From: an uncultured archaeon
GTDB taxonomy: Archaea; Aenigmatarchaeota; Aenigmatarchaeia; PWEA01; JAGHBM01
Direction of reading: 5' to 3'
Assembly: GCA_964584335.1 (NCBI GenBank)
Contig: CAZOZN010000002.1
Span: forward strand, 200,025-264,024
Length of the DNA stretch: 64,000 bases
Shown: positions 1 through 14,854 of the stretch, in pieces
Layout: each line of letters starts with the position of its first letter
Position numbering within the stretch: position 1 is the first letter of the stretch
The notes under the pieces: generated by a model
Databases searched by the model: none
What the model was told of the DNA's origin: nothing
What the model saw: only the letters and a program-made list of their open reading frames with translations
Position numbers and translations under genes: made by a program

Positions 1-146
1 TGGGGGAAATACGGTCCTTAGGTCTCCCGAGGAGCCTTCATTTAGTATTTTTTCAAAAAAAGGAAGACTACCTTCTTTTATCCACTTTTTTATTATGTCT
101 AGTCTTGCTCCATCTATCCCAACGAAAAGAGTTTTTGAGATACCAT
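1..146 (-). CDS. N-terminal fragment of an alkaline-phosphatase-core / type I phosphodiesterase-nucleotide pyrophosphatase family protein (partial; start not resolved)
   Basis: Reverse-strand translation reads ...SQK(T)LFVGIDGARLDIIKKWIKEGSLPFFEKILNEGSSGDLRTVFPP. The GIDG...P..T.FP pattern is typical of the AlkP/NPP metal-binding N-terminus. No in-frame ATG/GTG/TTG is present. A +1 frame carries ATG GTA TCT CAA AAA..., which would join to give MVSQKTLFVGIDGA if the A5 run at about 128-132 had one more A. The reading frame continues beyond the window start. Confidence 0.4.
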
Positions 147-149
147 CAC

Positions 150-1193
150 CTATAATACTTCTTCATAAACTTTTATTAATTCATCTGTAAAGTTGTCCCA
201 AGTATATATCTTGGATTTTTTTCTGTTTTCTTCCCCCATCCTTTGAGCTTCTTTTGGATTTTCTATAAGGTATCTTATGGAATCTACCAGCTGTTTTGTG
301 TTCTCTTTTTCCACTTTAAATCCCTCGTAATCAAGGGGTATGGTAGATACTATAGCGCAACCCGATGCCATCGCCTCCGCCAGAACAAGCCCAAAACCTT
401 CTCCTATCGAAGGCAGGCAAAAAACAAGAGCCTTTGAATAATAATCAAACATTTCTTCTCTGTCTATCCATCCCAGAAACTCGACATTTTTCGGGGCCAT
501 CTCCTTAAGAGCTTTGCTTTCTCTGCCCTTTCCCGTGAGCTTGAATTTTATGTCAGGAAGTTCTCTAGCAGCAAGCATGAGATATTTCAATCCCTTTTGT
601 TTTGCAAGTCTTCCGGCGAAGAAAACAAAAGGCTCTTTCTCTGTTTTTTTGAATTTATCCCTGTCTATTACCAGGCCAGGCGGTATTATCTTTGTTATTT
701 TTTCGCTGAGACCGTGTTCAAGAGCCTGCTTTCTTGCGTAGCTGCTTAAAAAAACCACTTTGTCGTAATTGTGAAGTATTTGCATCCTTTCCATGTAGTC
801 GGATATGGAACCTAACATTTTTCCGCGCATCTTTATCCATCCCTTTCCATACATTCCATGAACTATACACACTACCGGTTTTTTTAGCAGTTTGCCAGCA
901 ACATAAGAAGGGAAACATGCATTGTAGTTGTTTGTCTGTATTAAGTCAAAGTCTTTGGCCTTTTTTAGTATTTGGGGTATTGCAAAGTTTAACGCATATC
1001 TGTTTATTGGGATTCTATGTGTTACAATGTCTTCATACTTTTTTATTTTTGGGTCTCCTGTTGTAAGAACTTCGACATAAACTCCCTTTTTCTGAAGAGT
1101 TTTTGTTACGTGATAAACAACTTCCTCTCCGCCACCATGACACACGGGCATAAACAACTCATGTGTCATTAGAACTCTCATTTTATCACACAA
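150..1193 (-). CDS. GT4-family (GT-B fold) glycosyltransferase
   Basis: 347-aa ORF. C-terminal EGFGLVLAEAMASGCAIVS matches the E-x7-E GT4 motif. It lies immediately downstream of aglB on the same strand. Confidence 0.8.
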   Translation of the reverse strand: MCDKMRVLMTHELFMPVCHGGGEEVVYHVTKTLQKKGVYVEVLTTGDPKIKKYEDIVTHRIPINRYALNFAIPQILKKAKDFDLIQTNNYNACFPSYVAGKLLKKPVVCIVHGMYGKGWIKMRGKMLGSISDYMERMQILHNYDKVVFLSSYARKQALEHGLSEKITKIIPPGLVIDRDKFKKTEKEPFVFFAGRLAKQKGLKYLMLAARELPDIKFKLTGKGRESKALKEMAPKNVEFLGWIDREEMFDYYSKALVFCLPSIGEGFGLVLAEAMASGCAIVSTIPLDYEGFKVEKENTKQLVDSIRYLIENPKEAQRMGEENRKKSKIYTWDNFTDELIKVYEEVL

Positions 1194-1212
1194 AATTATT
1201 TGAATTAATATA

Positions 1213-3381
1213 TTATATGTTTTCTATTGCTTTTTCTATTTTTAGCCTGTATATTTTTACCTGCTCGTTCATGAAAACCCTTTCAAAATATTCTGTATCT
1301 TCCTCTTCTTTAAAGAACATTCTTGTGAACAATGAGTTTTCATGATTTGTTGGTATGTAAACAGTATATCCAAATTGTGGATGAATCCATACAGTTCCGG
1401 GTATAGTGTTGTTCAGATTTTCAAAAGAAACTTGAGCAACCGAACCGTTTTGCTGGTATATTAGCATTTTTTCTATTACAACTTCACCGTCTTCTGCCTC
1501 AATTTTTGGAGTTATTGTGTTGTTTGAGAAATCTAAAACCAAACCACCCCTGTATAATAATTTTGTTTCTCTTTGTTCTGACAAAGGCATTTGCGTGTAG
1601 AGAGGGCAAATTTGCTGGCCATTGTTTGTTAGTATACCCGTTCCGTCACAGCCAGTTCCAAAGTACTGAAGCCATCTAAATTTACCTATCAAATCGTCTG
1701 ATGCAATCCAGTATATTTCTGATGCATCTCCTTTGTAGTTCAATAAAATTTTTGCAGCTTCTGTTTCATTATCCGTATTGAATATTTTGCCCAGATGTGT
1801 TATTCTTGTGTTTAACCCAGGGTCACAAGTTCTTTCTGGGCAGTGTGCCCCGTCTGCTATGTTTCTTCTTTCTGATATTGCTGCTATCCTGTGACCAGGG
1901 TCCCACCAAGTTCCGACTACACTATCTTCCGGTGTATTATCCCTAAGGAAAAAATAAGCCTCTTTCCAGTTGTTGTTTATCGGGTTTCTTTCTGATTGTT
2001 GCGTTGCGACTTGTGTTGCTTGGGATAGAGTAACTAAGCACACAAAAACAGCAACTCCCATTATTATTGCCTTTGATATTTTTGGTGTTTTTTCTTTTTC
2101 TTTTTTGTAGTAAGGATATAGAACTATCATCAGTGCGGTAAATATTGCTAGTAAAATTCCTCCAGAAGGTTGCGTGAATGATACTAAAACGGACGCGAGG
2201 AAAAGAAAACCTATCAAGGGAGCCATATTACCCATTTCTTTAAGACTTTTGTATGCTTCTGATATAGCAATGCCGCCAGAAACTGCTGCAGCGGGTGCGA
2301 AAACAAGCATAAAACGAACACCTCTTGTTATCGCGAAGAAAGTCACACCCAACCAAGTTAAAAGTATAATACCGTCTTTTAAATCCCTTTTAAGGAGAAG
2401 AATAACACCGGTTATTGAGAATATGAACGGTATTGATAGTTCGCTAAATAATCTGCTCCAAGCACCACCGAGAATGTTTAAGTTTTGCAATTCTGCTACG
2501 GAAATGTTTACTATTTGTACCTGTGCTGGATTAAATGTAAATCCTACTAATGCAGTTATTATTGAGTAGGGGTTGTAACCCATCAACCAAACCAAAACAG
2601 ACGAAGCTATGAATATTAACAGCAACGGAAAAAAAGTTTTTTTGAATATTTTGAAGGATTTTTTTGCCCTTTCTCCCATTTCAGGCATTACCTTATTTTT
2701 TTCGCTTCCGGTTCTCCATTCTTTTTTGCCTATAAAAACCAATGTGATAAAGTAAGCAAAACTTGAAATCATTACTATTATTGGAATATACCAACCTTGT
2801 CCCCATGTCAAGCCAAAAAGAACCAAACCCAGGAAAGCAAGAATATGATTAATCAAACTTTTCTTTTTGAAAGATCTTACCAGCAGGTACATTGTTAGCA
2901 GGGTGAAGAAAACAACCAAACCGTCTGTGTCGTAGAAACCGGCCATTGTTCTTGTAAGAACTGCGACACTTGTTCCTATGAAGAAGGCCGCTAAAAGTCC
3001 TGCTTTTTTGTCTGAAAATTCCTTTCCAAGAAAGAATGCGGGTATTGTAGCCAAAGCTCCATAAATACCTGCCATATACTTGCAGAAAAGCATTAAAGAC
3101 ATTCCCGAACCGAATATCATATATAGGTAAGCAGTAGTATAATGCATAACAGGCGGATGGTTTATTGGTCTGCCGGGCGGGTAATAACTCATCGAATCCC
3201 ACGCGGGCATTATTCCGTTTTCTACAACATAACCAGTATATCTGTAGTGAAAGTATGGGTCATAAGCTAACAGCCAGTCCCCGTCCAGAGTGAAAAATCT
3301 GATATGTAAAGACAATAGAAATATTATTAACAGTGCTATCAGGTACCATCTTTTTTTAAGAACTTTTTTTATTTTTTCCAT
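1213..3381 (-). CDS. aglB: Archaeal oligosaccharyltransferase AglB (STT3 family)
   Basis: 722-aa polytopic membrane protein. The N-terminal region has a DxD-type motif (LDGDWLLAYDPYFHYRY). The WWDYG-type catalytic motif is present as GTWWDPGHRIA. A C-terminal soluble domain is present. Confidence 0.9.
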   Translation of the reverse strand: MEKIKKVLKKRWYLIALLIIFLLSLHIRFFTLDGDWLLAYDPYFHYRYTGYVVENGIMPAWDSMSYYPPGRPINHPPVMHYTTAYLYMIFGSGMSLMLFCKYMAGIYGALATIPAFFLGKEFSDKKAGLLAAFFIGTSVAVLTRTMAGFYDTDGLVVFFTLLTMYLLVRSFKKKSLINHILAFLGLVLFGLTWGQGWYIPIIVMISSFAYFITLVFIGKKEWRTGSEKNKVMPEMGERAKKSFKIFKKTFFPLLLIFIASSVLVWLMGYNPYSIITALVGFTFNPAQVQIVNISVAELQNLNILGGAWSRLFSELSIPFIFSITGVILLLKRDLKDGIILLTWLGVTFFAITRGVRFMLVFAPAAAVSGGIAISEAYKSLKEMGNMAPLIGFLFLASVLVSFTQPSGGILLAIFTALMIVLYPYYKKEKEKTPKISKAIIMGVAVFVCLVTLSQATQVATQQSERNPINNNWKEAYFFLRDNTPEDSVVGTWWDPGHRIAAISERRNIADGAHCPERTCDPGLNTRITHLGKIFNTDNETEAAKILLNYKGDASEIYWIASDDLIGKFRWLQYFGTGCDGTGILTNNGQQICPLYTQMPLSEQRETKLLYRGGLVLDFSNNTITPKIEAEDGEVVIEKMLIYQQNGSVAQVSFENLNNTIPGTVWIHPQFGYTVYIPTNHENSLFTRMFFKEEEDTEYFERVFMNEQVKIYRLKIEKAIENI

Positions 3382-3430
3382 GGAATGACCGTATTTTGTT
3401 TACTCATAAAAACAATAGTATATAACACTT

Positions 3431-4105
3431 TTAAAGCTTAAAGAGTTTTTTAAACAAGAACTTTGCGTTGTGTATACCGTCCATTACTGTTATTCCTTTT
3501 ATTTTTGCTTTTGTTACTATTGGTATTTCTTTTACTTTTAGTTTGTTTTTTGCTATCTCGAATACCATTTCACCCTCTATTTCATATCTTTTTGCTTCCA
3601 AGTTCATTTTTCTAAGCGCGCTTGTTTTCAGAGCCCTGTAACCGGATTGGGTATCTCCCAACCATTTATGGCTCAATAATCCCTTGGGTCCGAAAGAGAA
3701 AAAATTTGTGATAAAGTTAAGTCCGAAGTTTCCAATTACATTTCTGGGAAAGGTGTAAAAACGACCGGCGTACCTTGAACCTATTACGACATCATTGTCT
3801 TTGAGTTCTTTAACCAGTTTGGGTATGTATTTTGGGTAATGTTGTCCGTCCGAGTCCAAAAACACTATGACATCTGCCCCGTTTTCTTCTGCGATGTAAG
3901 CTCCTGTTCTCAAAGCAAAACCTTTTCCATGGTTAAAATACAGATTTATTATTTCTGCTTCTGTTTTTTCTGCTTCCTTCATGCTACAATCATGAGAACC
4001 GTCATCCACGTATATTACATCATCTACGTACTTTTCTGTTTCACTTATAACGTCTTTTACTGTTTTTTCGACGTTATATCCAGGAATAACCGCTGTTATA
4101 TTCAT
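3431..4105 (-). CDS. GT2 dolichyl-phosphate hexose synthase-like glycosyltransferase (DPM1/AglJ-like)
   Basis: MNITAVIPGYNVEK...VDDGSHDCS...FLDSDGQH are GT-A motifs. The ORF-track start at 4186 would overlap the divergent rSAM gene by 35 nt. The internal Met (MNITAVIPGYN) at 4105 gives the canonical GT2 N-terminus and removes the overlap. Confidence 0.8.
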   Translation of the reverse strand: MNITAVIPGYNVEKTVKDVISETEKYVDDVIYVDDGSHDCSMKEAEKTEAEIINLYFNHGKGFALRTGAYIAEENGADVIVFLDSDGQHYPKYIPKLVKELKDNDVVIGSRYAGRFYTFPRNVIGNFGLNFITNFFSFGPKGLLSHKWLGDTQSGYRALKTSALRKMNLEAKRYEIEGEMVFEIAKNKLKVKEIPIVTKAKIKGITVMDGIHNAKFLFKKLFKL

Positions 4106-4151
4106 AAATATATAAAGCCCCATTAAGAATAAATAAAGTTGGGGGTAATTC

Positions 4152-5594
4152 TTGTTGAAGGTTCTTTTTTTAAATCCACCGCACAAATTCAGGATAAGCA
4201 GGTGTAGTAGGTGGCCGGAACATACAAAATCCGGAACGCTTTATTTTCCTTACTGGCTTGCTTATGCCGCGGGAGTTTCCTTGGAAAAAGGACACGAAGT
4301 TTCTCTTTTGGATGCAATAGCAAAAAATTGGAGTTTTGAAAAAACCTTGGATGAAATAAAAAAATTCAATCCGGATTTGATTGTTCTGGAAACAGTAACT
4401 CCTACTTTTTTTAGCGATATGAGATTTGTAAGTTTTGTAAAACAGAATATTGATACAAAACTTTGTCTTGTCGGTACCCACGTAAGTGTCTTTCCAAAAA
4501 AATCCTTGAGAGAAAGCAAGGCGGATTATGTTGCAATAAAGGAATATGATTATACAGTTCTGGATTTGCTTGAAAATTTGAATGGAAAAAAAGATTTGAA
4601 AGACATAGAAGGAATAGCTTATAAAGAAGATGACGATGTTTTTGTAAACAAAGAAAGGGAATTACTGACAGACATGGATTCATTACCTTTCGTTTCTAAG
4701 GTGTATAAGAAATTTCTTGATATAGAGGATTATAGGTATTCTTTGGCCAGACATCCCATGGTACAAATATGGAGTGCGAGGGGTTGTCCCAATATGTGTA
4801 CGTTTTGCCAGTATCCTCAAGTTTTTTCTGGAAGATGTTTCAGGTCAAGGTCGCCGGAAAATTTCGTAGACGAACTTGAATGGGTTAAAAAAAACCTTCC
4901 ACAGGTAAAGGAAATTTTCGTTGAGGACGATACTATGACTATTGACAAGGAGAGAATAATCAGAATATGTGATTTGATAAGGGAAAGAAATCTTAAAATA
5001 GTCTGGTCTGCCAATTTAAGGGCGGATGTTCCTTACGAAGTTTTAAAGAAAATGAAAGAATCCGGATTCAGGATGGCTATAGTTGGTTATGAGAGCGGCA
5101 ACCAAGAGGTTCTTAATAATATAAGAAAGGGAGTTTTATTGGAGAGAACGATAAAATTTACTGAAGATTGTAAGAAATTGGGGATAAAAATATTCGGCTG
5201 CTTTATGGTAGGTTTACCCGGAGAAACCAGGGAAACTGTTTACCAGACTCTTGATTATGCTAAGAGACTTAATCCTGATATGGCTTTCTTCCAGCATTCA
5301 GTTCCTTTCCCCGGGACACGGTTTTACGAGTGGGCAAAGAAAGAAAATTGTCTTGTCACTGAGGATTGGGATGAATGGCTTGATGAAAATGGAAGGTTGG
5401 GTTTTTTGATTGATTGCCCTGAGATGTCAAGAAAAAAAGTAAGGGAACTGAGAGATGAAATAACAAAAAAGTTTTATACAAACCCGAAGTGGATAGGTTA
5501 CGCGTTGACACACAATATTCATCCATATGAAATGGTCAGGATGATTAAGGCAGGTGTTGACTATTTTAAGTTTTTAGTAAGTGAGAGTGATTAA
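4152..5594 (+). CDS. Cobalamin-binding (class B) radical SAM enzyme
   Basis: N-terminal B12-binding Rossmann-like region (MLKVLFLNPP...). The radical SAM cluster motif CPNMCTFCQY (CxxxCxxC) and a C-terminal elongated rSAM domain are present. The stop is 2 nt before the next GT2 gene. Confidence 0.85.
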   Translation: MLKVLFLNPPHKFRISRCSRWPEHTKSGTLYFPYWLAYAAGVSLEKGHEVSLLDAIAKNWSFEKTLDEIKKFNPDLIVLETVTPTFFSDMRFVSFVKQNIDTKLCLVGTHVSVFPKKSLRESKADYVAIKEYDYTVLDLLENLNGKKDLKDIEGIAYKEDDDVFVNKERELLTDMDSLPFVSKVYKKFLDIEDYRYSLARHPMVQIWSARGCPNMCTFCQYPQVFSGRCFRSRSPENFVDELEWVKKNLPQVKEIFVEDDTMTIDKERIIRICDLIRERNLKIVWSANLRADVPYEVLKKMKESGFRMAIVGYESGNQEVLNNIRKGVLLERTIKFTEDCKKLGIKIFGCFMVGLPGETRETVYQTLDYAKRLNPDMAFFQHSVPFPGTRFYEWAKKENCLVTEDWDEWLDENGRLGFLIDCPEMSRKKVRELRDEITKKFYTNPKWIGYALTHNIHPYEMVRMIKAGVDYFKFLVSESD

Positions 5595-5596
5595 AA

Positions 5597-6556
5597 GTGA
5601 AGGAACCTTCTGTTACAATTTTCTTGACTGTTAAGAATTCTTCAGAAACAATAAAAAAATGCGTCGATTCTCTTTTGAATCTGAATTATAGTAATTACAG
5701 CATTTACGTAACTGATGCTTATTCTACAGACGGTACTTTTGAAATTCTTAAGGAATACGAGGACAAGATAAAACTTGAGCAAGTCAGGGGCAATATGTCA
5801 AAGGCTTACAACCATATGACAAAAAGAACTAACACAGATTTTATTGCTTACACAGATGCTGATTGTGTTGTTGACAGTGATTGGTTGAGTGAGTTGGTTT
5901 CTGGTTTTGAAAAAGAAGAAGTGATAGCGGTTGCAGGCTTTTGCGGAACTCCAGACGGCTTGTCTAATTTTCAAAATGCAATAGGAAAGGAGCTTGAGCA
6001 AAGATTCAAAGATTTCCCCAAGTACATTAAAAGGGCACCCACAATGAATCTTGCTATTAGGACAGAAGTGGCAAAGAAGGTGGAGTATGACGAGAGTCTT
6101 GACGTAAGTCAGGAGACAGATTGGTGCTATAAGATAAATAAATACGGCAAGATACTTTATAATCCGAATGCAAAAGTTTTTCATTATCACAGAAGCAATA
6201 TAAGAAGTTATTTCAAACAACAGAAGAAGTACGGAAAATTTGTTGTTCTTACCTACTTGGGCAGACATAGAAAAGAAATAAAGGGAGATAACGTGTCACC
6301 CACATACATGGCCTTGCAGATACCTTTCTTCTGGGCGTCAGTTTATTTTATTTTACTTTCTCTTATAAATTTCAGTTTGATTTATTTTTCTCTGTTTTTT
6401 GTTTTTTTGATTTTTTTGATATACCTTTTTAACATTTTTAAGATTAAACCGAGATTAATTGAACTGCCTGTTTATTTTTTTATTTTTGTCTTGAGAACAG
6501 TTGCCTGGTCGATTGGTTTCGTAAGCGGACTAATTCTTTTGATTAAATCGAAATGA
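5597..6556 (+). CDS. GT2 glycosyltransferase with C-terminal transmembrane helices
   Basis: YVTDAYSTDGT and DADCVVDSDW are GT-A DxD motifs. The last ~90 aa are strongly hydrophobic (2-3 TM). Confidence 0.8.
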   Translation: MKEPSVTIFLTVKNSSETIKKCVDSLLNLNYSNYSIYVTDAYSTDGTFEILKEYEDKIKLEQVRGNMSKAYNHMTKRTNTDFIAYTDADCVVDSDWLSELVSGFEKEEVIAVAGFCGTPDGLSNFQNAIGKELEQRFKDFPKYIKRAPTMNLAIRTEVAKKVEYDESLDVSQETDWCYKINKYGKILYNPNAKVFHYHRSNIRSYFKQQKKYGKFVVLTYLGRHRKEIKGDNVSPTYMALQIPFFWASVYFILLSLINFSLIYFSLFFVFLIFLIYLFNIFKIKPRLIELPVYFFIFVLRTVAWSIGFVSGLILLIKSK

Positions 6557-6620
6557 ATGCTTTATACCAGATAATTTTATATATAGAAAAATTTGTTTTT
6601 TAATTATAGAGGTAGATTTG

Positions 6621-6827
6621 ATGGTTAAGAAAAAAAGTACCAAGAAAAAAACAAAAAAGAAAACAATGAAGAAAGTAAGGTGCGCAGCGAAGACAAGAGA
6701 TGGAAAGAGATGCAAGAACTTTGCATCAGGCAGGTCTAAATATTGTAAGGCTCATCAGAAGGCAAGTTCAAGAGGGCCTAAGAAAAAGAAGACCACAAAG
6801 AAAAAGAAAACCAGAAAGAAAAAATGA
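6621..6827 (+). CDS. Small lysine-rich Cys3His zinc-finger protein (putative nucleic-acid-binding)
   Basis: MVKKKSTKKKTKKKTMKK-VRCAAKTRDGKRCKNFASGRSKYCKAH-QKASSRGPKKKKTTKKKKTRKKK. A single C-x9-C-x10-C-x2-H core (resembling an FCS/treble-clef finger) is flanked by two poly-Lys tails. The ATG at 6621 is preferred over the TTG at 6618. An AGAGGTAG Shine-Dalgarno sits 7 nt upstream. A TTTATATATAG TATA-like box lies about 27 nt upstream. Confidence 0.55.
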   Translation: MVKKKSTKKKTKKKTMKKVRCAAKTRDGKRCKNFASGRSKYCKAHQKASSRGPKKKKTTKKKKTRKKK

Positions 6828-7031
6828 TTTTTATCTTTCATCACAAAACACCCCCTATTTTTAATTTATTTAACCCTTCCAGTTCTTAGTATGAATGCAA
6901 TGGCGATGAAAATACCGTCCCAAAGGGATTTTTAGATGACCGGAAAGGTAGCTATTGAGCCATTGCACTATAAAAAAGCTTAAATACTTGATAATTTTAA
7001 TAAAATTACAAATTAGAACGGAGGTAAAAAA

Positions 7032-7340
7032 ATGGTAGAATTTGAGACAATTGAATCAACTGAAGTAAAATTTGGAAATAACAACTTCATTGAGATTGGG
7101 AAGAAAAAAGCCATAACTGACGAAGGGGAAAACGTTTTTATTTCTCTTTCCAGAGGTTTTTTCACACCAGACAATGAAAGGAGATATAAGAAGAATTTTG
7201 CATTACCAAACGAAGCTGGTGTAATAAAGAAAATAATAGAAGCACTACAGGATTTGGATGTGCCAGAAGGTTCAGAAGATTCTGATGAAGAAGCGGCTGA
7301 AGAAGATGCAGATGATTCAAGCGAAGAAGAAGAAGAGTGA
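7032..7340 (+). CDS. PC4/Sub1-like (ssDNA-binding fold) protein with poly-acidic C-terminal tail
   Basis: NFIEIGKKKAITDEGENVFISLSRGFFTPDNERRYKKNFALPNEAGVIKKIIEALQDL matches the pattern of the PC4 C-terminal domain (FQIGK..YVSV..FKGK.LIDIREYW...G.KGISL). The 25-residue tail is D/E/S-only. A GGAGGT Shine-Dalgarno is 7 nt upstream. Confidence 0.55.
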   Translation: MVEFETIESTEVKFGNNNFIEIGKKKAITDEGENVFISLSRGFFTPDNERRYKKNFALPNEAGVIKKIIEALQDLDVPEGSEDSDEEAAEEDADDSSEEEEE

Positions 7341-7361
7341 GAAAAACCTTTTACTTTATAA

Positions 7362-7389
7362 TTCTGCTCTTAGAGCAGAATTTTTTTTG
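7362..7389 (+). terminator. Intrinsic-type terminator: 8-bp hairpin (TTCTGCTC/GAGCAGAA, loop TTA) followed by T9
   Basis: A perfect inverted repeat immediately followed by a run of 9 T, located 22 nt after the stop of the acidic-tail gene. Confidence 0.6.
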
Positions 7390-7432
7390 TTTTTTATTAA
7401 ATAATTAAATATAACTGTCTTATACTATTATT

Positions 7433-8305
7433 ATGCCTGAAGAGTTGTTTACGGGAGGTTCTCCTTTGTGTTCTGGTTGCATGTCTTCTCTTGGTTTGAA
7501 GATTGCTCTGGAAACCTTGGGCAAAAATACTATAGTTGTAAATTCTTCCGGATGCCTTACTCTCTTATCTGTTTATCCCAATTCTCCAATGAGAGTTCCG
7601 TTTATTCATGTAGCGATAGAGAATGCAGGTGCAGTTGCTAGCGGCATATACTCGGCATACAAGCAGAAAGGAGAACATGTCAATATTTTGATTTATGCGG
7701 GAGACGGTGCTACGTATGATATAGGTTTTCAGTCGCTTTCCGGTGCTTGCGACAGAAGGGATGATTTTTTGTATGTTTGCTATAACAATCAGGCGTTTAT
7801 GAATACGGGGATACAACAATCTAGTGCGACTCCTCTTGGAGCAGCTACTAAAACAACACCAAGCGGCGAGGAAAATAAGATGGGAAATTTATTTCAAAGA
7901 AAACCTATAGAGAGGATAATTGCGGCACATGGAGTTCCTTATGTTGCTACTGCATGTGTTTCTTTTCCTGAGGATTATAAGAACAAACTTGAGAAGGCCA
8001 TGAACATTGTCGGCCCGAAATTTATAGACCTGTTATGTCCCTGTCCTACTGGATGGGGTTTCAAGCCCCAAGACGGTATAGATATAGGCAAGCGTGCAGT
8101 TCAAACTGGTCTGTGGCCTCTTTACGAGATAGAAAACAACAAACTCAAAATAACCCACAAACCCAATAAACTTAGGCCAGTTGAAGATTATTTTTCATTA
8201 CAAAAAAGATACAGGCATCTTGGTAGTGAGCAAAAGAAGACTATACAGAATGTTGTTAATCATAGATGGAAGGAGTTGTTAAAGGGAGATTTTTATGGAT
8301 TTTAG
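7433..8305 (+). CDS. porB: Pyruvate/2-oxoacid:ferredoxin oxidoreductase beta subunit (TPP-binding)
   Basis: N-terminal CSGCMSS Cys cluster. The GDG(x)nN thiamine-pyrophosphate motif is present as YAGDGATYDIGFQSLSGA...YNNQAFMNTG. Size is about 290 aa. Confidence 0.85.
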   Translation: MPEELFTGGSPLCSGCMSSLGLKIALETLGKNTIVVNSSGCLTLLSVYPNSPMRVPFIHVAIENAGAVASGIYSAYKQKGEHVNILIYAGDGATYDIGFQSLSGACDRRDDFLYVCYNNQAFMNTGIQQSSATPLGAATKTTPSGEENKMGNLFQRKPIERIIAAHGVPYVATACVSFPEDYKNKLEKAMNIVGPKFIDLLCPCPTGWGFKPQDGIDIGKRAVQTGLWPLYEIENNKLKITHKPNKLRPVEDYFSLQKRYRHLGSEQKKTIQNVVNHRWKELLKGDFYGF

Positions 8306-10255
8306 GTGGTTGAAATTTTTGTAATTTTTTGTTGTCTTATGGGATTTTTGTTTGTTTTGTTTTTGTATAGAAAACTTAATGGATTTGAAAAAGGCAACAA
8401 AAGAATGGTGGAAATATCTGACTATGTTCATAACGGTGCAAAAACATTTCTAAAGGAAGAGTACAAATCGCTCCTGATATTCGTCTTTATTTTTTCTGTA
8501 ATACTTTACTTTCTTGACTTTCGTTTATCACTGTCTTTTATATTGGGTTCATTTTTTTCTGCGCTGGCAGGAAATATAGGAATGAGAATGTCCACCTCTT
8601 CTAACACGAAGACTGCATACGCTGCAAGGAAAAGCCTTAAAAAATCTTTGAGGGTTGCTTTCTCATCTGGTTCTATAATGGGCATGACCACAGTGAGTCT
8701 GGGACTAATAGGCATTAGTTTGCTTTATATGGTTTTTGGAGATCCTAACGTAATTTATGGTTATGCTTTTGGTGCTTCCATGGTTGCATTGTTTGCCAGA
8801 GTTGGTGGCGGGATATATACCAAGGCTGCTGACATAGGTGCTGATACAGTAGGCAAGCTAGAAAAAAACATGCCCGAGGACGACCCCAGAAACCCTGCCG
8901 TTATAGCTGACCAAGTGGGAGATAACGTGGGTGATGTTGCTGGAATGGGTTCAGACCTTTTTGAGAGCTACGTCGATGCGATTATAGCGACAATGGTAAT
9001 GGGAGTTTCTATAATAGGTTTTGGCGACTTTGTCTTAATACCCTTATTGATATCCGGTATAGGTATTTTATCCTCTATAATCAGTTATTTTCTTATATAC
9101 CTGAACCTTGAAGGAGGCGTGGAAAACATGCTTGACAGGTGTGTTTATGGTTCTACTATTTTAACTGCATTGTTTTCCTTCCTGATAGTGGACTATCTTG
9201 CTGTTGGTATGCATATTTTTTATTCTATATTCACAGGACTTTTGCTGGGTTTGATAATAGGCAAATCCAGCGAGTACTATACATCAATGGATAGAAGTCC
9301 TACCATAAACATAGCTAAAGAAAGTCGCGCCGGTGCTGCCACCAATATAATATCAGGTCTTGCCACGGGAATGGAAAGTAATATAGTTCCGGTCATATCG
9401 ATAGGCGCGGCGATGGTAATTAGCTACGGCTTCGCCGGAATTTATGGAATAGGCCTTGCCGCAGTTGGCATGTTTGCTAATCTGGGTACGACTCTCTCTA
9501 TAGATTCCTACGGTCCCACAGTTGATAATGCGGAAGGCATAGCAAAGATGGGTAAGTTAAGCAAGGTCGCAAGGAAAAGATGCGAAGAATTGGATGCTGT
9601 TGGCAACACCACGGCTGCTGTAGGCAAAGGATTTGCGATAGGTTCTGCAGCTCTTGCTTCACTCGCATTGTTTTCTTCTTACATAGAGGCAACCAATCTT
9701 AGTGTCATAAGTCTTGTTTCGCCTAAGGTTATAGCCGCTCTTTTCTTGGGAGGTCTTTTGCCGTTTTTGTTTTCTTCAATGACAATGAGGTCTGTAGGAA
9801 AGACGGCATCGAAGATAGTTCATGAATCAAGAAGGCAGCTGGAAGACAAGAAGATATTTTCTGGAAAGAAAAAACCAAATTACCAGAGATGCATAAAGAT
9901 AAGCAGTGATGCTGCAATCCAGGAAATGATTTTACCAGGAGTTCTTGCGATAGGTGCTCCTGTTGCTACGGGATTGATTTTGGGGGTGGAGGCTTTGGGA
10001 GGTCTTTTGGCGGGAACAATCACTACAGGCTTGTTGCTTGCTATAATGATGGCCAATGCCGGCGGTGCATGGGATAACGCAAAGAAATATGTTGAACAGG
10101 GGCATCTCGGTGGAGAAGGTTCTGAAGTTCACAAGGCCACAATAATCGGGGACACGATAGGTGACCCATTTAAAGATACTTGCGGCCCTTCTCTTGATAT
10201 ATTGTTAAAGTTGATGTCGATAGTTGCGATAGTTTTTATACCACTTTTTATATAA
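8306..10255 (+). CDS. hppA: Membrane-bound H+/Na+-translocating pyrophosphatase
   Basis: Polytopic membrane protein. It carries the signature motifs GGG(I)YTKAADIGADTVGK, DQVGDNVGDVAGMG and IGDTIGDP. It starts 1 nt after the porB stop. Confidence 0.9.
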   Translation: MVEIFVIFCCLMGFLFVLFLYRKLNGFEKGNKRMVEISDYVHNGAKTFLKEEYKSLLIFVFIFSVILYFLDFRLSLSFILGSFFSALAGNIGMRMSTSSNTKTAYAARKSLKKSLRVAFSSGSIMGMTTVSLGLIGISLLYMVFGDPNVIYGYAFGASMVALFARVGGGIYTKAADIGADTVGKLEKNMPEDDPRNPAVIADQVGDNVGDVAGMGSDLFESYVDAIIATMVMGVSIIGFGDFVLIPLLISGIGILSSIISYFLIYLNLEGGVENMLDRCVYGSTILTALFSFLIVDYLAVGMHIFYSIFTGLLLGLIIGKSSEYYTSMDRSPTINIAKESRAGAATNIISGLATGMESNIVPVISIGAAMVISYGFAGIYGIGLAAVGMFANLGTTLSIDSYGPTVDNAEGIAKMGKLSKVARKRCEELDAVGNTTAAVGKGFAIGSAALASLALFSSYIEATNLSVISLVSPKVIAALFLGGLLPFLFSSMTMRSVGKTASKIVHESRRQLEDKKIFSGKKKPNYQRCIKISSDAAIQEMILPGVLAIGAPVATGLILGVEALGGLLAGTITTGLLLAIMMANAGGAWDNAKKYVEQGHLGGEGSEVHKATIIGDTIGDPFKDTCGPSLDILLKLMSIVAIVFIPLFI

Positions 10256-10287
10256 TATTTTATAAAACAAAAACAGGGTGATAATTA

Positions 10288-12216
10288 ATGAGTAATTGGG
10301 TAGTTAAGGACGAAGAAAAGGATTTTTTTTGGCCGTCGGATGAGATGAAAAATAAGGCTAATGTTTCTGATTCTAATGTTTATGATGATGCACTTTCAGA
10401 CCAGATCGGGTTTTGGTCTGAAAAAGCAAAGGAGCTTGAATGGTTTAAAGAATGGGATAAAGATTATGAGGATAATCCTCCAAATTTCAAATGGTTTGTC
10501 AACGGAAAAACTAACATATGTTATAACGCGGTGGACAGGCATCTTAATGACAAGGGGGATAAAACTGCAATTATTTGGGTACCCGAAAACCAGGAAGAAA
10601 CCCCAAGAAAGATAACTTATAAAGAGCTTCATGAGGAAGTCTGCAAGTTTTCTAATGTTCTAAAAGATTTGGGTGTCGGTAAGGGAGACAGGGTAGGAAT
10701 ATACATGCCAATGGTACCCGAAGTACAGGTGGCTCTTCTTTCCTGTGCCAGACTGGGTGCTATACACACCGTTGTTTTCTCTGCATTTTCTTCCGAGTCT
10801 CTTAAGGAGAGGATGGAAGATTCGGATGCAAAAGTCTTGATAACAGCGGACGGTTATTACAGGAGAGGCAAGGAAATAGACCTAAAGAAAAAGGCAGACG
10901 AAGGAGTTGAAGGTACTGGTGTAGAAAAGGTTGTTGTTGTAAGGAGATTGAAGTCCGATGTAGATATGATGGAGGGAAGAGATTTTTTCTACGATGAAAT
11001 AATCAAAGACAGCAATTCATCATTTAATGCAGAACACATGGAAAGCAATAAAACTCTTTTCATATTATATACTTCCGGAACAACAGGCAAGCCGAAGGGG
11101 ATTGTGCATGATACCGGAGGCTACATGGTACAGGCTTACCTTACAACAAAATGGATTTTTGATTTGCAGGACGACGACGTGTTCTGGTGTACTGCAGATA
11201 TAGGATGGGTTACAGGACACACTTACTCATGTTACGGCCCTCTTCTTAACGGCGGAACAATGTTAACCTTTGAGGGTTCTCCGGATTATCCTGATTTGGG
11301 TGCCTGGTGGAAGATAATAGAGGAACATGGAGTTACGATTTTTTATACCTCACCCACCGCAGTAAGGATGTTTAAGAAAGGAGGGGTTGAATTTATAAAA
11401 AAATATGATTTGAACACCCTTAGAATTCTTGGAAGTGTGGGGGAACCTATAGACAAGGAGACGTGGCTCTGGTATTTCAAAGAAATAGGGGGAGAAAGAT
11501 GCCCCATACTTGATACATGGTGGCAAACCGAAACCGGCGGAATACTTATAACAGCACTTCCCGGTATAGGGCCGATAATACCGACTGTCGCAGGAAAACC
11601 TTTCCCAGGAGTAAGAATGGAAGTTGTTGATGAAGACGGAAAAAAGGTTGAAAAGGGGGAAGGTTTTGTAGTACAAAAGAAGCCTTTCGCTCCCGGTATG
11701 TTGAGAGGTGTTTACAAAAACCCGGAAAAATATCTCAGTACCTACTGGGAGAGGTATGGAAAAGATGTTTATTACCCCGCCGATGGCGCGATAATGATGG
11801 AGGGAGGCAACATAAAGATAACGGGCAGGTCCGACGATGTCATGAAGGTGGCCGGACACAGGATGTCCACGGCCGAGATGGAGGACGCAATAAACAGGAA
11901 CCCAAACGTGGCGGAGTGTGCGGTCGTTTCGAAACCGGATGAAATAAAGGGCGAAGTGCCTATAGCATTTGTTATATTGAAGAATAGTGAAGACCCGGAA
12001 AAAATGAGAAAGGAAATAAAGAAAACAACGGACGAGCACATAGGACCAATAGCGAGACCGAAGGAAATATACTTCGTGGAAGACGTTCCCAAAACACGTT
12101 CCGGTAAAATAATGAGAAGGATACTCAAGAGCATGCTTCGTGGTAGGGAACTGGGCAACCTCAGCACGCTAAAGAACCCGGAATCGGTAGAAAAAGTAAA
12201 GGATGTTATCGGTTAG
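10288..12216 (+). CDS. acs: Acetyl-CoA synthetase (AMP-forming acyl-CoA ligase)
   Basis: 642 aa. The AMP-binding motif is present as YTSGTTGKPKG. The hinge/core motifs are GYYRRGKEID...TGD. The C-terminal region matches ACS (PKTRSGKIMRR). Confidence 0.9.
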   Translation: MSNWVVKDEEKDFFWPSDEMKNKANVSDSNVYDDALSDQIGFWSEKAKELEWFKEWDKDYEDNPPNFKWFVNGKTNICYNAVDRHLNDKGDKTAIIWVPENQEETPRKITYKELHEEVCKFSNVLKDLGVGKGDRVGIYMPMVPEVQVALLSCARLGAIHTVVFSAFSSESLKERMEDSDAKVLITADGYYRRGKEIDLKKKADEGVEGTGVEKVVVVRRLKSDVDMMEGRDFFYDEIIKDSNSSFNAEHMESNKTLFILYTSGTTGKPKGIVHDTGGYMVQAYLTTKWIFDLQDDDVFWCTADIGWVTGHTYSCYGPLLNGGTMLTFEGSPDYPDLGAWWKIIEEHGVTIFYTSPTAVRMFKKGGVEFIKKYDLNTLRILGSVGEPIDKETWLWYFKEIGGERCPILDTWWQTETGGILITALPGIGPIIPTVAGKPFPGVRMEVVDEDGKKVEKGEGFVVQKKPFAPGMLRGVYKNPEKYLSTYWERYGKDVYYPADGAIMMEGGNIKITGRSDDVMKVAGHRMSTAEMEDAINRNPNVAECAVVSKPDEIKGEVPIAFVILKNSEDPEKMRKEIKKTTDEHIGPIARPKEIYFVEDVPKTRSGKIMRRILKSMLRGRELGNLSTLKNPESVEKVKDVIG

Positions 12217-13559
12217 TCTGATTTAGAATATTCATAGAGGACTTTCAATACCTCTACGCACCTTTTAGGGGATGTGAAGCAAGGCATCCCGCCCTCTTCC
12301 AGTTTCATTTTCAATTTTTCAGTATATTCTCCACCTGCAGATACTATTGAAGTTGTCTTTCTTCCTGATAGTTTCAATATTTTATCCACTACATCTTTTT
12401 TTAACAGGGGCGGCTGGAACAGGAAAACGAGCGCTATCATGTCAACCTTTTTGTCTCTTATTGCATCTTCGTAACAAGCCTCGTACATTTCTGAGGTAAC
12501 GTCTCCCGTAAGGTCTATTATATTTTCCATTGTTGCGTGCTTGGGTAATATTTTTCTTAGATTATTTTTGCTTTTTTTGCTGACTTTAGCAAGGCTCAAT
12601 CCGAATTTTTCTGCCCAGTCTGATGTCAGTACACCGAAACCACCAGCATCTGTTATTATTCTTAGTTTCCTGCCTTCTGGGAGTGGCTGGTTTGATATAG
12701 CTCTAGCAAGGTCAAACATCTGTTCCAAATCTTCCGCTTCAATTATTCCTGTCTGATTGAACACGCCGGAATATATTTTTGCGTTTCCTGCCAAAGCACC
12801 TGTGTGAGTTTTTGCCGATTTTCTGCCGCTTTCAGTTTTACCACCCTTGAGAACTATTACCGGCTTATTTATTTTTTTTGATACTTTGAAAAATTCTTTG
12901 CCGTCCTTCAATCCTTCTATGTATATACAAATTACTTTTGTTTCTTTATCCTCATCCAAATGTTTCATCAATTCAGTAACGTCTACATCTGTTGCATTAC
13001 CATAAGATATTGCCTTTGATATTTTGTATCCTTTCAGGGACATCCAGTCCAGTGTTATGCAAAGAGTTGCTCCGGATTGTGATATGAAACCAATGTTTCC
13101 CTTTTTTGGCCTTCCCATCCTTTCTTTTGGATTGAAGATGGTATCCAAACCGAAATAAGGGTTATAAACTCCCATGCAGTTGGGCCCTATTACTCTTAGG
13201 TTATATTTTTTGATTACTTTTTTCAATTCTTTCTCTCTTTTAATGTTTCCGGCTTCTTTGAAACCTGCTGAAACTACTATGCAGTTTTTTATTTTTTTCT
13301 CTCCGCATTCTTCAAGAACATCATAAACATATTTTGCAGGTATTGCCAGAACAGCCAGGTCCACTTTTTTGTTTATATCGCTGACTTTTCTGTAACAGTC
13401 AATGCCCATTATTTTTTTGGCCTTGGGGTTTACCGGATATATTTCGCCCTTGAAATTTTCTTTGAAATTGTTTAATATTACATTTCCTATCTTGCCTTTT
13501 TTTCTTGAAGCTCCTATTATGCAAACTGACTCCGGCCTAAAAAATTTGTCTAAGGTCAT
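12213..13559 (-). CDS. acdA: ADP-forming acetyl-CoA synthetase (NDP-forming acyl-CoA synthetase) alpha subunit
   Basis: N-terminal CoA-binding domain (SVCIIGASRKKGKIGNVILNN). A succinyl-CoA-synthetase-like flavodoxin domain contains a GPNCMGVYNP phosphohistidine-loop region. Size is 448 aa. Confidence 0.85.
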   Translation of the reverse strand: MTLDKFFRPESVCIIGASRKKGKIGNVILNNFKENFKGEIYPVNPKAKKIMGIDCYRKVSDINKKVDLAVLAIPAKYVYDVLEECGEKKIKNCIVVSAGFKEAGNIKREKELKKVIKKYNLRVIGPNCMGVYNPYFGLDTIFNPKERMGRPKKGNIGFISQSGATLCITLDWMSLKGYKISKAISYGNATDVDVTELMKHLDEDKETKVICIYIEGLKDGKEFFKVSKKINKPVIVLKGGKTESGRKSAKTHTGALAGNAKIYSGVFNQTGIIEAEDLEQMFDLARAISNQPLPEGRKLRIITDAGGFGVLTSDWAEKFGLSLAKVSKKSKNNLRKILPKHATMENIIDLTGDVTSEMYEACYEDAIRDKKVDMIALVFLFQPPLLKKDVVDKILKLSGRKTTSIVSAGGEYTEKLKMKLEEGGMPCFTSPKRCVEVLKVLYEYSKSD

Positions 13560-13638
13560 AATAATCTTTCGTGATTGTAATATAATAAATTTATGTAAAG
13601 TTTATAAAAGATGCAAATAAAATATTTTTAGTGTTCGC

Positions 13639-14843: not shown

Positions 14844-14854
14844 CTTGTCACCAT

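Follow-up and report, generated by a model that had tools for sequence, protein, structure and literature searches.

A radical SAM enzyme with a B12-binding domain (hereafter rSAM) and a membrane-anchored family 2 glycosyltransferase (GT2b) encoded immediately downstream in all likelihood form a functional unit inside a glycosylation module. This module lies at one end of a 64,000-nt stretch of DNA (the window) from an uncultured archaeon of the Aenigmatarchaeota. Gene identities, the placement of the rSAM among known families, the conservation of its linkage to GT2b, and the latter's fold and topology were established directly. Many tiny archaea and several bacterial phyla have the rSAM and a membrane GT2 side by side in their glycosylation clusters, a recurrence that predicts a sugar modification not described before. 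Our literature search found no earlier description. The likeliest activity of the rSAM is to rearrange a lipid-linked hexose, by HpnJ-type radical chemistry, at the inner membrane face. Taken as a whole, the proposal that the rSAM-GT2b unit rearranges a lipid-linked sugar within the glycosylation module is plausible but tentative.

The preliminary description of this DNA had reported a cluster of AglB, a GT4, a DPM1-like GT2, a membrane GT2, and an AlkP-like enzyme. Sequence searches recovered all five at positions 1–6556, and their identities support the designation of the cluster as a glycosylation island. On the minus strand, the outermost gene (1–146) encodes the N-terminal fragment of an AlkP-superfamily or type I phosphodiesterase (PF01663-like), with 47 residues inside the window (frame translation ...ISKTLFVGIDGARLDIIKKWIKEGSLPFFEKILNEGSSGDLRTVFPP) and the remainder past its edge. 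No canonical in-frame start is present past the GT4 stop, where only ATT and ATA occur. The fragment aligns by tblastn with Phosphodiest-family genes located by the same rSAM in three other loci (L010, L019, and L002; 36%–50% identity over 40–46 aa), and the L019 representative matches PF01663 at 149.5 bits. The adjacent GT4-family enzyme (150–1193, minus strand; GT-B fold) matches PF00534 (104 bits) and PF13439 (75 bits), and its best NCBIfam matches, glycogen synthase and Agl16, are weak and far under their cutoffs. AglB, an STT3-type oligosaccharyltransferase (1213–3381, minus strand; PF02516, 125.9 bits), carries a WWDPG motif at residue 492 and has STT3A, STT3B, and archaeal AglB as its best PDB sequence matches.

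GT2a (3431–4123, minus strand; PF00535) is a soluble polyprenyl-phosphate glycosyltransferase of the DPM1/AglJ/PpgS/ArnC type for which no transmembrane segment is predicted. Its length is 224–230 aa, depending on whether it starts at the ATG at 4123 (230 aa, as called in the window's own contig, L001) or at the ATG at 4105. Among NCBIfam models, AglJ (91.5 bits) scores highest, ahead of PpgS (84.5 bits), with both under cutoff, and the best PDB match is the Dol-P-Man synthase of P. furiosus (5mlz, E 3.6e-11), followed by ArnC. A galT/PMM pair had been noted 15 kb away, and Pfam domains confirm both a galT-like, HIT-type Gal-1-P uridylyltransferase (21574–22533, minus strand; PF01087, PF02744) and a PGM/PMM (22555–23874, minus strand; PF02878, PF02879, PF02880, PF00408). 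These genes possibly supply sugar nucleotides to the island. The link is weak, and neither gene is among the recurrent rSAM neighbors in other loci.

The rSAM gene (4152–5594, plus strand) does lie between two GT2 genes, as first described, with the qualification that it is divergent from GT2a and codirectional with GT2b only. The starts of rSAM and GT2a are ~30–50 bp apart, and the intergenic region (4124–4151) is AT-rich, very short, and presumably a shared promoter region. By direct reading, a TATATAAA element is located just to its left at about 4108–4116. A GGGGGT Shine–Dalgarno-like element lies 4–7 nt upstream of the rSAM TTG start, and a scan for sigma-70 promoters and terminators gave no signal above chance. 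The proposed translational coupling of rSAM to GT2b holds with respect to the tight spacing only: there is no overlap, and GT2b, which is operonic with rSAM, starts 2 nt past the rSAM stop (TAA at 5592–5594, GTG at 5597).

The rSAM protein is 479–480 aa long, with a TTG start at 4152 or 4155. Matches to both PF02310 (48 bits, with the B12-binding domain intact) and PF04055 (88 bits) agree with its original assignment to the class B type, and the cluster motif is C212-x3-C216-x2-C219 (CPNMCTFC, 212–219). No transmembrane segment is predicted, and the enzyme is predicted to be cytoplasmic. Its best NCBIfam match is HpnJ (TIGR03471), a hopanoid-associated B12-domain radical SAM protein encoded in the hpnI-hpnJ-hpnK operon. 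HpnJ is genetically required for conversion of bacteriohopanetetrol (BHT) glucosamine into the cyclitol ether of BHT, and is a presumed nonmethylating, ring-contracting enzyme. The match scores 428.4 bits over residues 3–477 versus a curated cutoff of 577.6 bits. The second-best family is BchE (159.7 bits, cutoff 481), and the ladderane rSAM family also scores at most 160 bits. Models for MCR Gln methylase (138), PhpK (123), HpnR (92), AprD4 (69), and KedN5 (68 bits) fall lower. The rSAM is not GenK-like, and the examples emphasized earlier (GenK-type C-methylation, GrsA/B ring formation, and HpnP) are not its nearest relatives; HpnJ is nearest at 428 bits versus at most 160 bits for other families. 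An AF2 model of the enzyme (pLDDT 92.8) has AprD4, MgmA, TsrM, and OxsB as its best structural matches, with CysS and TokK also among its neighbors.

Phylogenetic analysis separates the window rSAM from the clade of bona fide HpnJ (bootstrap 100/100) but places it within an HpnJ-like superclade that separates from paralogs in 81/100 bootstraps. In the window clade, 50 columns reach a conservation of 95% or more; bona fide HpnJ has an identical residue at 45 of them, whereas neighboring class B paralogs share 32. The window clade is hosted by DPANN archaea, Omnitrophota, Sumerlaeota/BRC1, Endomicrobiales, Planctomycetota, Fibrobacterota, Clostridia/Coriobacteriales, and a Lawsonia plasmid, and its genes are found in glycosylation loci. 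It had been proposed that grouping of the rSAM with lipid-tailoring enzymes from genomes lacking such a cluster would mark the adjacency as incidental. Such a grouping exists only nominally, because HpnJ tailors lipid head groups, yet the window rSAM lies outside the HpnJ clade. Because the enzyme's own clade is embedded in glycosylation loci, the adjacency is functional and not incidental.

A survey of 36 loci of this clade revealed a GT2b-family gene directly beside rSAM in 24 and no more than four genes away in 29. Other recurrent neighbors are GT4 (18 loci, counted as a homologous GT4 within four genes of rSAM), GT2a (12), PMT_2 (11), and STT3 (9). Excluding the window's own contig, 22 rSAM-adjacent GT2b genes score 227–399 bits on the family HMM. 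Pairwise distances for rSAM and GT2b correlate (r = 0.85; Mantel test, 0 of 2000). The pair occurs in ~20 independent loci in two domains of life, and thus its arrangement is not due to chance and the position of rSAM is meaningful, as had been suspected. The arrangement of GT2a divergent from rSAM and GT2b, whose conservation in related genomes had been put forward as a check, is kept in four loci (L097, L087, L089, and L099) with rSAMs that are 56%–70% identical. The pair is also present in many loci from DPANN and bacteria, where GT4, STT3, or PMT_2 often accompanies it. DPANN have the same block, and bacterial variants exist in Omnitrophota (L016; STT3-GT2-rSAM-GT2b-GT4), BRC1 and Endomicrobiales (L046 and L065; GT2-rSAM-GT2b, in some cases with GT4), Sumerlaeota (L041; the same genes in altered order), and Chitinispirillaceae (L025; GT2b preceding rSAM). 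In CPR loci, GT2b-family genes are found amid several other class B rSAM subfamilies and methyltransferases.

GT2b (5597–6556, plus strand; PF00535, PF13641, PF13632) consists of a GT-A domain, an amphipathic helix, and three C-terminal transmembrane helices (AF2 pLDDT 95.9; helices 202–221, 236–254, 259–283, and 287–318). Both GT2 enzymes had been considered dolichol-phosphate-type; this description suits GT2a, whereas GT2b has a minimal cellulose-synthase-like membrane fold. To judge from the model, this fold fits an enzyme with a membrane-embedded acceptor, as expected. Its TDADC motif includes D87 and D89, which are invariant among 42 homologs. Because GT2b has only three transmembrane helices and its alignment lacks a QxxRW motif, it is probably nonprocessive. 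Foldseek returned hyaluronan and cellulose synthases (TMq 0.62–0.68) and PcManGT, a transmembrane GT2 mannosyltransferase from Pyrobaculum calidifontis (PDB 6yv7, TMq 0.59). These enzymes, including the class I hyaluronan synthases, likewise combine a GT-A domain, an interface helix, and C-terminal transmembrane helices, but are only 11%–13% identical to GT2b. Profile comparison reveals no specific relationship between GT2b and HpnI (hhalign E 2.6e-15 for the HpnI-like family versus 1.5e-13 for a generic GT2).

From these components we infer a substrate, an order of steps, and a chemistry. The module would comprise GT2a (Dol-P-sugar synthase type), GT4, a GT-C transferase (AglB here; PMT_2, STT3/PglB, or ArnT-like in other loci), and often an AlkP-type phosphodiesterase, and would serve polyprenol-phosphate-dependent surface and protein glycosylation. 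GT2a would load a hexose or HexNAc onto dolichyl phosphate at the cytoplasmic membrane face, and GT2b and GT4 would extend this lipid-linked intermediate with further sugars. We lean toward a lipid-linked glycan as the substrate of the rSAM. Using its [4Fe-4S] cluster, the cytoplasmic enzyme would cleave SAM reductively and abstract hydrogen from a sugar ring of the intermediate, most probably in the residue installed by GT2b. The sugar would then be rearranged, with pyranose-to-cyclopentitol ring contraction favored by analogy with HpnJ, Cds, and PtmC. The product would be an ether-linked pseudo-sugar resistant to glycosidase and acid. Finally, the modified glycan would be flipped, and AglB would attach it to Asn sequons in surface proteins. 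Counting against this scheme, a contracted sugar at the reducing end could not be transferred by a GT-C enzyme. No HpnK-type deacetylase was identified.

Ring contraction as the specific chemistry is an analogy that may hold but is open to doubt. Against it count the missed HpnJ cutoff, the position outside the HpnJ clade, an identity to HpnJ of only 36%–40%, the lack of a specific tie between GT2b and HpnI, and the presence of the methylases MgmA, TsrM, CysS, and TokK and the sugar diol-dehydratase AprD4 among the best structural neighbors. The mix of rSAMs and methyltransferases in CPR loci fits iterative methylation at least equally well. Moreover, the HpnJ reaction is known from knockout genetics, with no biochemistry (PMC9092360).

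The rSAM might instead tailor a Dol-P- or nucleotide-linked glycan sugar in a cobalamin-dependent manner without rearranging its ring, either by C-methylation (GenK/MoeK5) or by AprD4-type dehydration or deoxygenation, a conceivable but not probable alternative. The intact B12-binding domain is in keeping with such a role. Characterized class B enzymes are mostly methylases, and HpnJ itself shares a cluster with two methylases, Fom3 and MoeK5, when SSN thresholds are stringent (PMC9204698). The leading structural matches are a methylase (MgmA) and a sugar diol dehydratase (AprD4, TMq 0.75), and class I methyltransferases and additional class B rSAM paralogs abound in related loci. However, every methylase model scores far under HpnJ, and the residues conserved in the clade are largely those of HpnJ.

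We consider it unlikely that the pair makes a membrane-lipid head group rather than a protein glycan, with AglB, GT4, and GT2a merely co-located in a "glyco-island." GT2b would then attach a sugar to a free lipid alcohol (archaeol or GDGT; in bacteria, diacylglycerol), and the rSAM would turn this sugar into an ether-linked cyclitol of the kind found in calditol or BHT cyclitol ether. Both characterized precedents, HpnI/HpnJ and Cds, do modify membrane-lipid head groups (PMC13459092). The GT2b fold is membrane-embedded, several GT2b homologs match PF13506 (Glyco_transf_21, the ceramide-glucosyltransferase/HpnI family), and a flippase-like LPG_synthase_TM gene is found beside hpnIJK and in one CPR locus. 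Yet the window GT2b does not reach PF13506 in a Pfam search and is no closer to HpnI-like GT2s than to generic ones. In addition, the pair is common to archaea and bacteria, whose core lipids differ chemically, and it is persistently linked to GT2a-type polyprenyl-phosphate glycosyltransferases and GT-C transferases with polyprenyl-phosphate donors. To our knowledge, DPANN archaea as a rule do not make their own lipids, which also speaks against a lipid product. It is highly improbable that the rSAM belongs to an unrelated pathway (e.g., for a cofactor or tetrapyrrole) and sits here incidentally in a variable region. Some databases name homologs "anaerobic Mg-protoporphyrin IX monomethyl ester cyclase" or "YgiQ," and a few clade members (L007, L011, L013, and L015) have no recognizable GT2b beside rSAM. 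Against this stand the low BchE score, the frequent adjacency to GT2b in two domains, the correlated distances, and the 2-nt spacing in the window.

Among known systems, the island resembles Dol-P-based archaeal N-glycosylation (Agl) pathways, such as that of Haloferax (AglJ/AglG/AglI/AglE/AglB), in having AglB with a WWDxG motif, an AglJ/DPM1-like GT2, a further GT2, a GT4, and sugar-nucleotide genes. It differs in that every Agl-specific NCBIfam model is missed by large margins. We know of no Agl pathway with a radical SAM enzyme, and a literature search on this point found no relevant paper. The closest solved folds for the rSAM are AprD4 (PDB 6fd2, a 1,2-diol dehydratase acting on paromamine) and MgmA (PDB 9ccb, an MCR glutamine C-methylase; TMq 0.65), which are also nearest in sequence among PDB entries (E 3.9e-17 and 1.5e-21, respectively). 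AprD4 likewise acts on a sugar ring, that of an aminoglycoside, but both enzymes have other substrates and are only 18%–21% identical to the rSAM.

In Sulfolobus acidocaldarius, an archaeal radical SAM enzyme, the calditol synthase Cds (Saci_1489), has been proposed to act after glycosylation and contract a lipid-bound hexose into a cyclopentitol, yielding an acid-stable ether linkage (PMC13459092, PMC9092360). By description, the window rSAM is similar in being an archaeal radical SAM enzyme with a proposed hexose ring contraction. However, Cds acts on GDGT head groups and its homologs are reported mainly from acidophiles, whereas the window clade comes from DPANN, CPR-associated, gut, or sediment lineages, and its window member resides in an AglB locus. 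HpnJ differs from the window rSAM in its monophyletic clade, in its hopanoid context with an HpnK deacetylase, in a partner GT2 from another family, and systematically at two positions (E258 and C350 in the window clade, both D in HpnJ); the window enzyme has an archaeal host. Nevertheless, no other family scores nearly as well as HpnJ, which aligns colinearly over the full length and has most clade-invariant residues in common. Bona fide hpnJ adjoins a membrane GT2 (hpnI or HpnI-like), just as the window rSAM adjoins GT2b, and is sometimes found near an ArnT-like GT-C gene and a flippase-like gene, paralleling the loci of the window clade.

The island at the left end of the window carries the genes that the preliminary description had placed there, with small corrections. 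Its minus-strand genes are an AlkP-superfamily gene that runs past the window edge and is represented by its first 47 residues (1 to approximately 146), a GT4 (150-1193), AglB (1213-3381), and GT2a, a short soluble GT2 (3431-4123). On the plus strand lie the B12-domain radical SAM gene, here called rSAM (4152-5594), and GT2b, a membrane GT2 (5597-6556). AglB matched PF02516 with 125.9 bits, carries the catalytic WWDxG motif as WWDPG at residue 492, and has STT3 and AglB as its PDB sequence matches. The AlkP-like fragment can be aligned to PF01663 genes found with the same rSAM at other loci. A galT and PMM pair is indeed present downstream, at 21.5-23.9 kb of the window. The reported coupling of rSAM to the second GT2 gene corresponds to a gap of 2 nt between the rSAM stop codon and the GTG start of the co-directional GT2b. 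It does not extend to GT2a, which is divergent from rSAM with starts ~30-50 bp apart.

The start of the AlkP-like gene is unusual (140-152, minus strand). No in-frame ATG, GTG, or TTG codon occurs from the upstream TGA to the conserved GIDGAR motif, and there are only ATT/ATA codons, which overlap the GT4 stop (TTATAG). Either this gene begins at a noncanonical start codon with coupling to GT4, or a sequence error is present.

Both GT2 proteins flanking rSAM had been regarded as dolichol-phosphate-type enzymes, and this assignment suits GT2a. Its best solved relative is the Pyrococcus furiosus Dol-P-Man synthase (5mlz, E 3.6e-11), followed by ArnC. Despite its resemblance to DPMS, AglJ, PpgS, and ArnC, GT2a scores below every equivalog cutoff, including those of the AglJ and PpgS models that it matched; GT2b and the GT4 are generic. 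Although sister loci have a PF00953 (AglH-type) gene, none is present in the 64-kb window, and tblastn found no gene in the window for PMT_2, the usual divergent neighbor in sister DPANN loci. A promoter and terminator scan of the window, which used no model of archaeal promoters, gave nothing above chance.

Several features elsewhere in the window deserve mention. Rfam reported two tRNAs only: tRNA-Ser(GCT) at 46121-46208 and a second tRNA at 46256-46384 (plus strand; 129 nt, 54.9 bits) that ARAGORN did not report and whose greater length points to an archaeal tRNA with an intron. A SAM synthetase of the bacterial/eukaryotic type (MetK, 14855-16009, minus strand; PF00438, PF02772, PF02773) lies ~9 kb from the SAM-consuming rSAM, and the rest of the genome around it is archaeal. 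Archaea usually have another MAT family. A giant predicted surface protein of 2655 aa (56007-63974, minus strand; Laminin_G_3, DUF2341, Big_1) has 126 N-X-S/T sequons at a density of 4.75 per 100 aa, and a 753-aa protein without a Pfam match (52937-55198, minus strand) has 25 sequons and a hydrophobic, signal-like N terminus. Either protein could plausibly serve as an AglB substrate. The island is separated from a lone PorB-like gene (7433-8305) and an H+-pyrophosphatase-like ORF (8306-10255) by a 102-aa ORF (7032-7340, plus strand) that has no family match and whose C-terminal tail (DSDEEAAEEDADDSSEEEEE) is strongly acidic.

Among NCBIfam models, HpnJ (TIGR03471) scored highest for rSAM at 428.4 bits, with residues 3-477 colinear with positions 2-469 of the 472-position model. 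However, TIGR03471 is an equivalog model with a curated whole-protein cutoff of 577.6 bits, and rSAM falls short of it. The next models were BchE (160 bits), ladderane rSAM (139), MCR glutamine methylase (137.7), PhpK (122.8), HpnR (92.1), AprD4 (69), and KedN5 (67.8). The tested methylase models reached at most 137.7 bits; those for MCR glutamine methylase (cutoff 360), PhpK, HpnR, and KedN5 all left rSAM far below their cutoffs as well as below its HpnJ score. Members from Acidobacteria, Binatia, and Enterobacteriaceae MAGs score 722-792 bits against the HpnJ model, whereas the relatives of the window protein in DPANN, Omnitrophota, BRC1, Planctomycetota, and Christensenellaceae score 381-464 bits.

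A neighbor-joining tree with 100 bootstraps, in which an hpnJ annotated by PGAP on a Mycetohabitans megaplasmid served as the reference, gave a consistent picture. The bona fide HpnJ clade (Mycetohabitans hpnJ, Acidobacteria, and Binatia) was recovered in 100/100 bootstraps with the window rSAM outside it, and the larger HpnJ-like assemblage was split from neighboring class B paralogs in 81/100. Within the clade of the window protein, conservation reaches 95% or more in 50 alignment columns; HpnJ has the same residue in 45 of these and the paralogs in 32. Systematic differences include E258 and C350, both of which are replaced by D in HpnJ.

The protein nevertheless shows the full HpnJ architecture, with an N-terminal B12-binding-type domain, a CxxxCxxC core (CPNMCTFC at 212-219; C212, C216, and C219), and a C-terminal extension, and it lacks any hydrophobic segment. 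PF02310 (48 bits, cutoff 32.1) together with the radical SAM core (PF04055) upholds its original designation as a class B enzyme by domain architecture, and its use of cobalamin is predicted. Its AlphaFold2 model (pLDDT 92.8) is closest in fold to AprD4, MgmA, TsrM, OxsB, CysS, and TokK. Because these neighbors mix methylases and nonmethylases, structure does not decide between the two kinds of chemistry. The top structural match, AprD4, has a B12 domain yet functions without cobalamin, and therefore a B12 domain alone is no proof of cobalamin use.

To examine genomic context, 100 loci were gathered, with the listing of matches covering the best 80 loci; genes were called and clustered, and cluster representatives were annotated. 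A metagenome scan gave only five further close loci. Neighbors were counted at those loci, 36 among the matches listed, whose rSAM belongs to the same clade as that of the window, with the window's own contig excluded. A GT2b-family gene directly adjoins rSAM on the same strand at 24 of these 36 loci (19 downstream, 5 upstream), and lies within four genes at 29. The other neighbors counted are GT4 at 18 loci, a GT2a-type GT2 at 12, PMT_2 (GT-C) at 11, STT3 at nine, PF00953 at seven, and a PF01663 phosphodiesterase at three. For 22 rSAM-adjacent GT2b genes outside the window's own contig, family-HMM scores were 227-399 bits, and the pairwise distances of rSAM and GT2b are correlated (r = 0.85; Mantel 0/2000).

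Conservation of the GT2-rSAM-GT2 arrangement in related genomes had been suggested as a check, and the order in which GT2a diverges from rSAM and GT2b is kept exactly in the three closest relatives (L097, L087, and L089; 68-70% identity). A typical DPANN block has PF00953, PMT_2, and GT2a divergent from rSAM and GT2b, with GT4, STT3, histone, RPA, and RadA genes farther along. Comparable sets of genes are found in bacteria. An Omnitrophota locus (L016) reads STT3-GT2-rSAM-GT2b-GT4, and Chitinispirillaceae (L025) have the same genes with GT2b before rSAM. The order GT2-rSAM-GT2b(-GT4) recurs in BRC1 (L046) and Endomicrobiales (L065), and Sumerlaeota (L041) carry these genes in another order. 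Clostridia and Coriobacteriales have looser clusters with GT2a, DUF2304, GT2b, and LicD.

The preliminary description had reasoned that the adjacency would be incidental if rSAM clustered with lipid-tailoring enzymes of genomes that lack this glycosylation cluster. The nearest characterized relative is a lipid-tailoring enzyme, but the agreement is only nominal, as the clade of the window protein forms a lineage of its own with ties to glycosylation. Thus, we consider it very improbable that rSAM sits beside these genes by chance. The rSAM-GT2b module is real, conserved, and uncharacterized.

Some loci hold additional tailoring genes. A second radical SAM gene, which has no counterpart nearby in the window, recurs close to the HpnJ-like rSAM at L082, L004, L005, L019, L065, L016, and L085, with a SPASM domain in that of L082 and in the L019 cluster representative. 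L082 and L085 also have class I methyltransferases, and L082 has a C5-epimerase-like gene. L085 (4624-19226) resides on a 27-kb plasmid (NC_008012.1) of Lawsonia intracellularis, an obligate intracellular pathogen of pigs. Its clade member is 40% identical to the window rSAM, and its heptose- and methyltransferase-rich cluster comprises a GT2 with two DUF2304 genes, galE, SIS, the second rSAM, five class I methyltransferases, another GT2, HAD-IIIA, and a GHMP kinase. This cluster offers a cultivable system for the rSAM family. Two CPR loci, L101 (Nealsonbacteria, GCA_043816745.1, 1-14434) and L102 (Patescibacteria, 1-15005), have GT2b-family genes amid four B12-domain rSAMs each, mostly 27-29% identical to the window protein, with one in L102 at 40%. 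Each also has one radical SAM gene of non-B12 type, which in L102 includes a SPASM domain. Further genes are a methyltransferase and members of the heptose pathway (SIS, GHMP kinase, NTP-transferase/HAD) in L101, and LPG_synthase_TM and DUF2304 in L102. Both are unusually dense radical-tailoring glycan clusters.

The dolichol-phosphate-type assignment is not supported for GT2b, since neither PDB sequence searches nor fold searches point to a DPM1-type enzyme. Members of this tight family are about 315-340 aa long and are found in DPANN and CPR. The AlphaFold2 model (pLDDT 95.9) combines a GT-A domain with one amphipathic helix (202-221) and three transmembrane helices within 236-318. By coverage, its best folds are membrane-integrated GT2 synthases, namely Chlorella hyaluronan synthase and BcsA (TMq 0.62-0.68), compared with 0.59/0.55 for PcManGT, a size-matched archaeal transmembrane mannosyltransferase; TarP is another of the best fold matches. 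PDB sequence matches are SunS, chondroitin synthase, and GmaR. The D87-x-D89 motif is kept and QxxRW is absent. PF13506, the ceramide-GlcT/HpnI family, is matched by some homologs but not by the GT2b of the window. We conclude that GT2b is probably a nonprocessive GT2 acting on a membrane-embedded acceptor, which would make it analogous, not orthologous, to HpnI.

A pathway can be proposed from these parts. GT2a would make a Dol-P-sugar, and GT2b and GT4 would lengthen the lipid-linked intermediate. The cytoplasmic rSAM might then act on a lipid-linked sugar, probably the one that its operon partner GT2b has attached, by abstracting a hydrogen from the ring, and a rearrangement would follow. 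AglB would transfer the flipped product; in other lineages this role would fall to PMT_2, STT3, or enzymes resembling ArnT. The chemistry we favor is modeled on HpnJ, Cds, and PtmC, the precedents for a radical ring-contraction route (PMC13459092, PMC9092360, PMC9204698): a C-5 radical would lead to ring opening and C-1/C-5 recombination, giving a cyclopentitol ether-linked to the aglycone. A GT-C enzyme must displace the reducing-end sugar from phosphate, so the contracted residue cannot be that sugar and the reaction is placed on a distal residue. We infer these steps throughout, from data that cover family placement, linkage, and topology.

A farther-reaching reading of this proposal is tentative and has a rather low probability. 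It holds that a lipid-linked hexose, contracted by a radical mechanism, becomes a carbocyclic (cyclitol) pseudo-sugar in N-linked or other surface glycans, that the cassette of GT2a, rSAM, GT2b, GT4, and GT-C has been swapped horizontally between DPANN and bacteria such as Omnitrophota, Sumerlaeota, Endomicrobiales, and Fibrobacterota, and that the hopanoid HpnJ is a specialized offshoot of a much wider family devoted to the tailoring of lipid-linked sugars. As a rival to the favored chemistry, rSAM might instead methylate a carbon of a glycan sugar or deoxygenate that sugar, a possibility of less than even probability. HpnJ was grouped with MoeK5 and Fom3 in a sequence similarity network (PMC9204698), the nearest folds are those of AprD4 and MgmA, and the CPR clusters place up to four class B paralogs next to GT2b genes. 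It is rather doubtful that the product is a calditol-like head group of a membrane lipid. Both precedents act on lipids, but it speaks against this reading that the rSAM-GT2b pair is present in both domains of life and is linked to pairs of polyprenyl-phosphate GT and GT-C enzymes.

To our knowledge, no archaeal or bacterial N-glycosylation pathway involves radical SAM chemistry. Within the literature collection searched, no paper tied AglB or other oligosaccharyltransferases to radical SAM enzymes, or HpnJ homologs to archaeal glycosylation. Ring contraction, if true, would introduce radical SAM chemistry into an AglB/PglB pathway for the first time and would create a glycan linkage resistant to glycosidases. 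A carbasugar product would form a hydrolysis-resistant glycan cap, relevant to glycobiology and biomarker work, and a C-methyl or deoxy sugar would still mean that lipid-linked glycans undergo a previously undescribed kind of tailoring. The comparative evidence for the module is solid, and the host is uncultured. Because the unit of rSAM and GT2b is conserved and has apparently moved between domains, it marks a widespread, testable, and uncharacterized sugar modification. Many of its carriers (DPANN and Omnitrophota, and CPR for the GT2b-family clusters) are ultra-small lineages, many of which are thought to depend on contact with host surfaces.

The hopanoid system serves as a comparison. In the reference operon (L086), the genes are arranged as hpnI-hpnJ-hpnK. 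Among 55 bona fide HpnJ loci, an HpnI-like GT2 is found in 14 (hhalign to HpnI, E 3e-56), an ArnT-like GT-C in six, and GT2b in only three. A separate conserved hpnJ block, distinct from the classical hpnIJK, occurs in Binatia and Proteobacteria MAGs (L020, L021, L026, L035, L043, and L060). It comprises gamma-glutamyltransferase, an ArnT-like GT-C, a flippase-like protein, hpnJ, an HpnI-like GT2, and a 295-aa protein; its hpnJ scores at least 722 bits where scored (L020), and a GT-C thereby lies beside a hopanoid hpnJ.

NCBIfam gave no match to HpnI in the window, and the association of HpnJ with hopanoid genes is not reproduced there. Orthology of GT2b and HpnI was rejected on the same grounds, and hhalign showed no preference of GT2b for the HpnI-like family over generic GT2s. 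Even for HpnJ, there is no biochemical proof that a lipid-bound hexosamine undergoes ring contraction (PMC9092360), and rSAM-GT2b provides a second, independent system for a reaction that has never been reconstituted. The hopanoid enzyme now looks like a single branch of a larger family whose members act beside membrane GT2s. The window module is best described as an HpnI/HpnJ-type pairing of a membrane GT2 and a radical SAM enzyme that has been recruited into polyprenol-dependent glycosylation.
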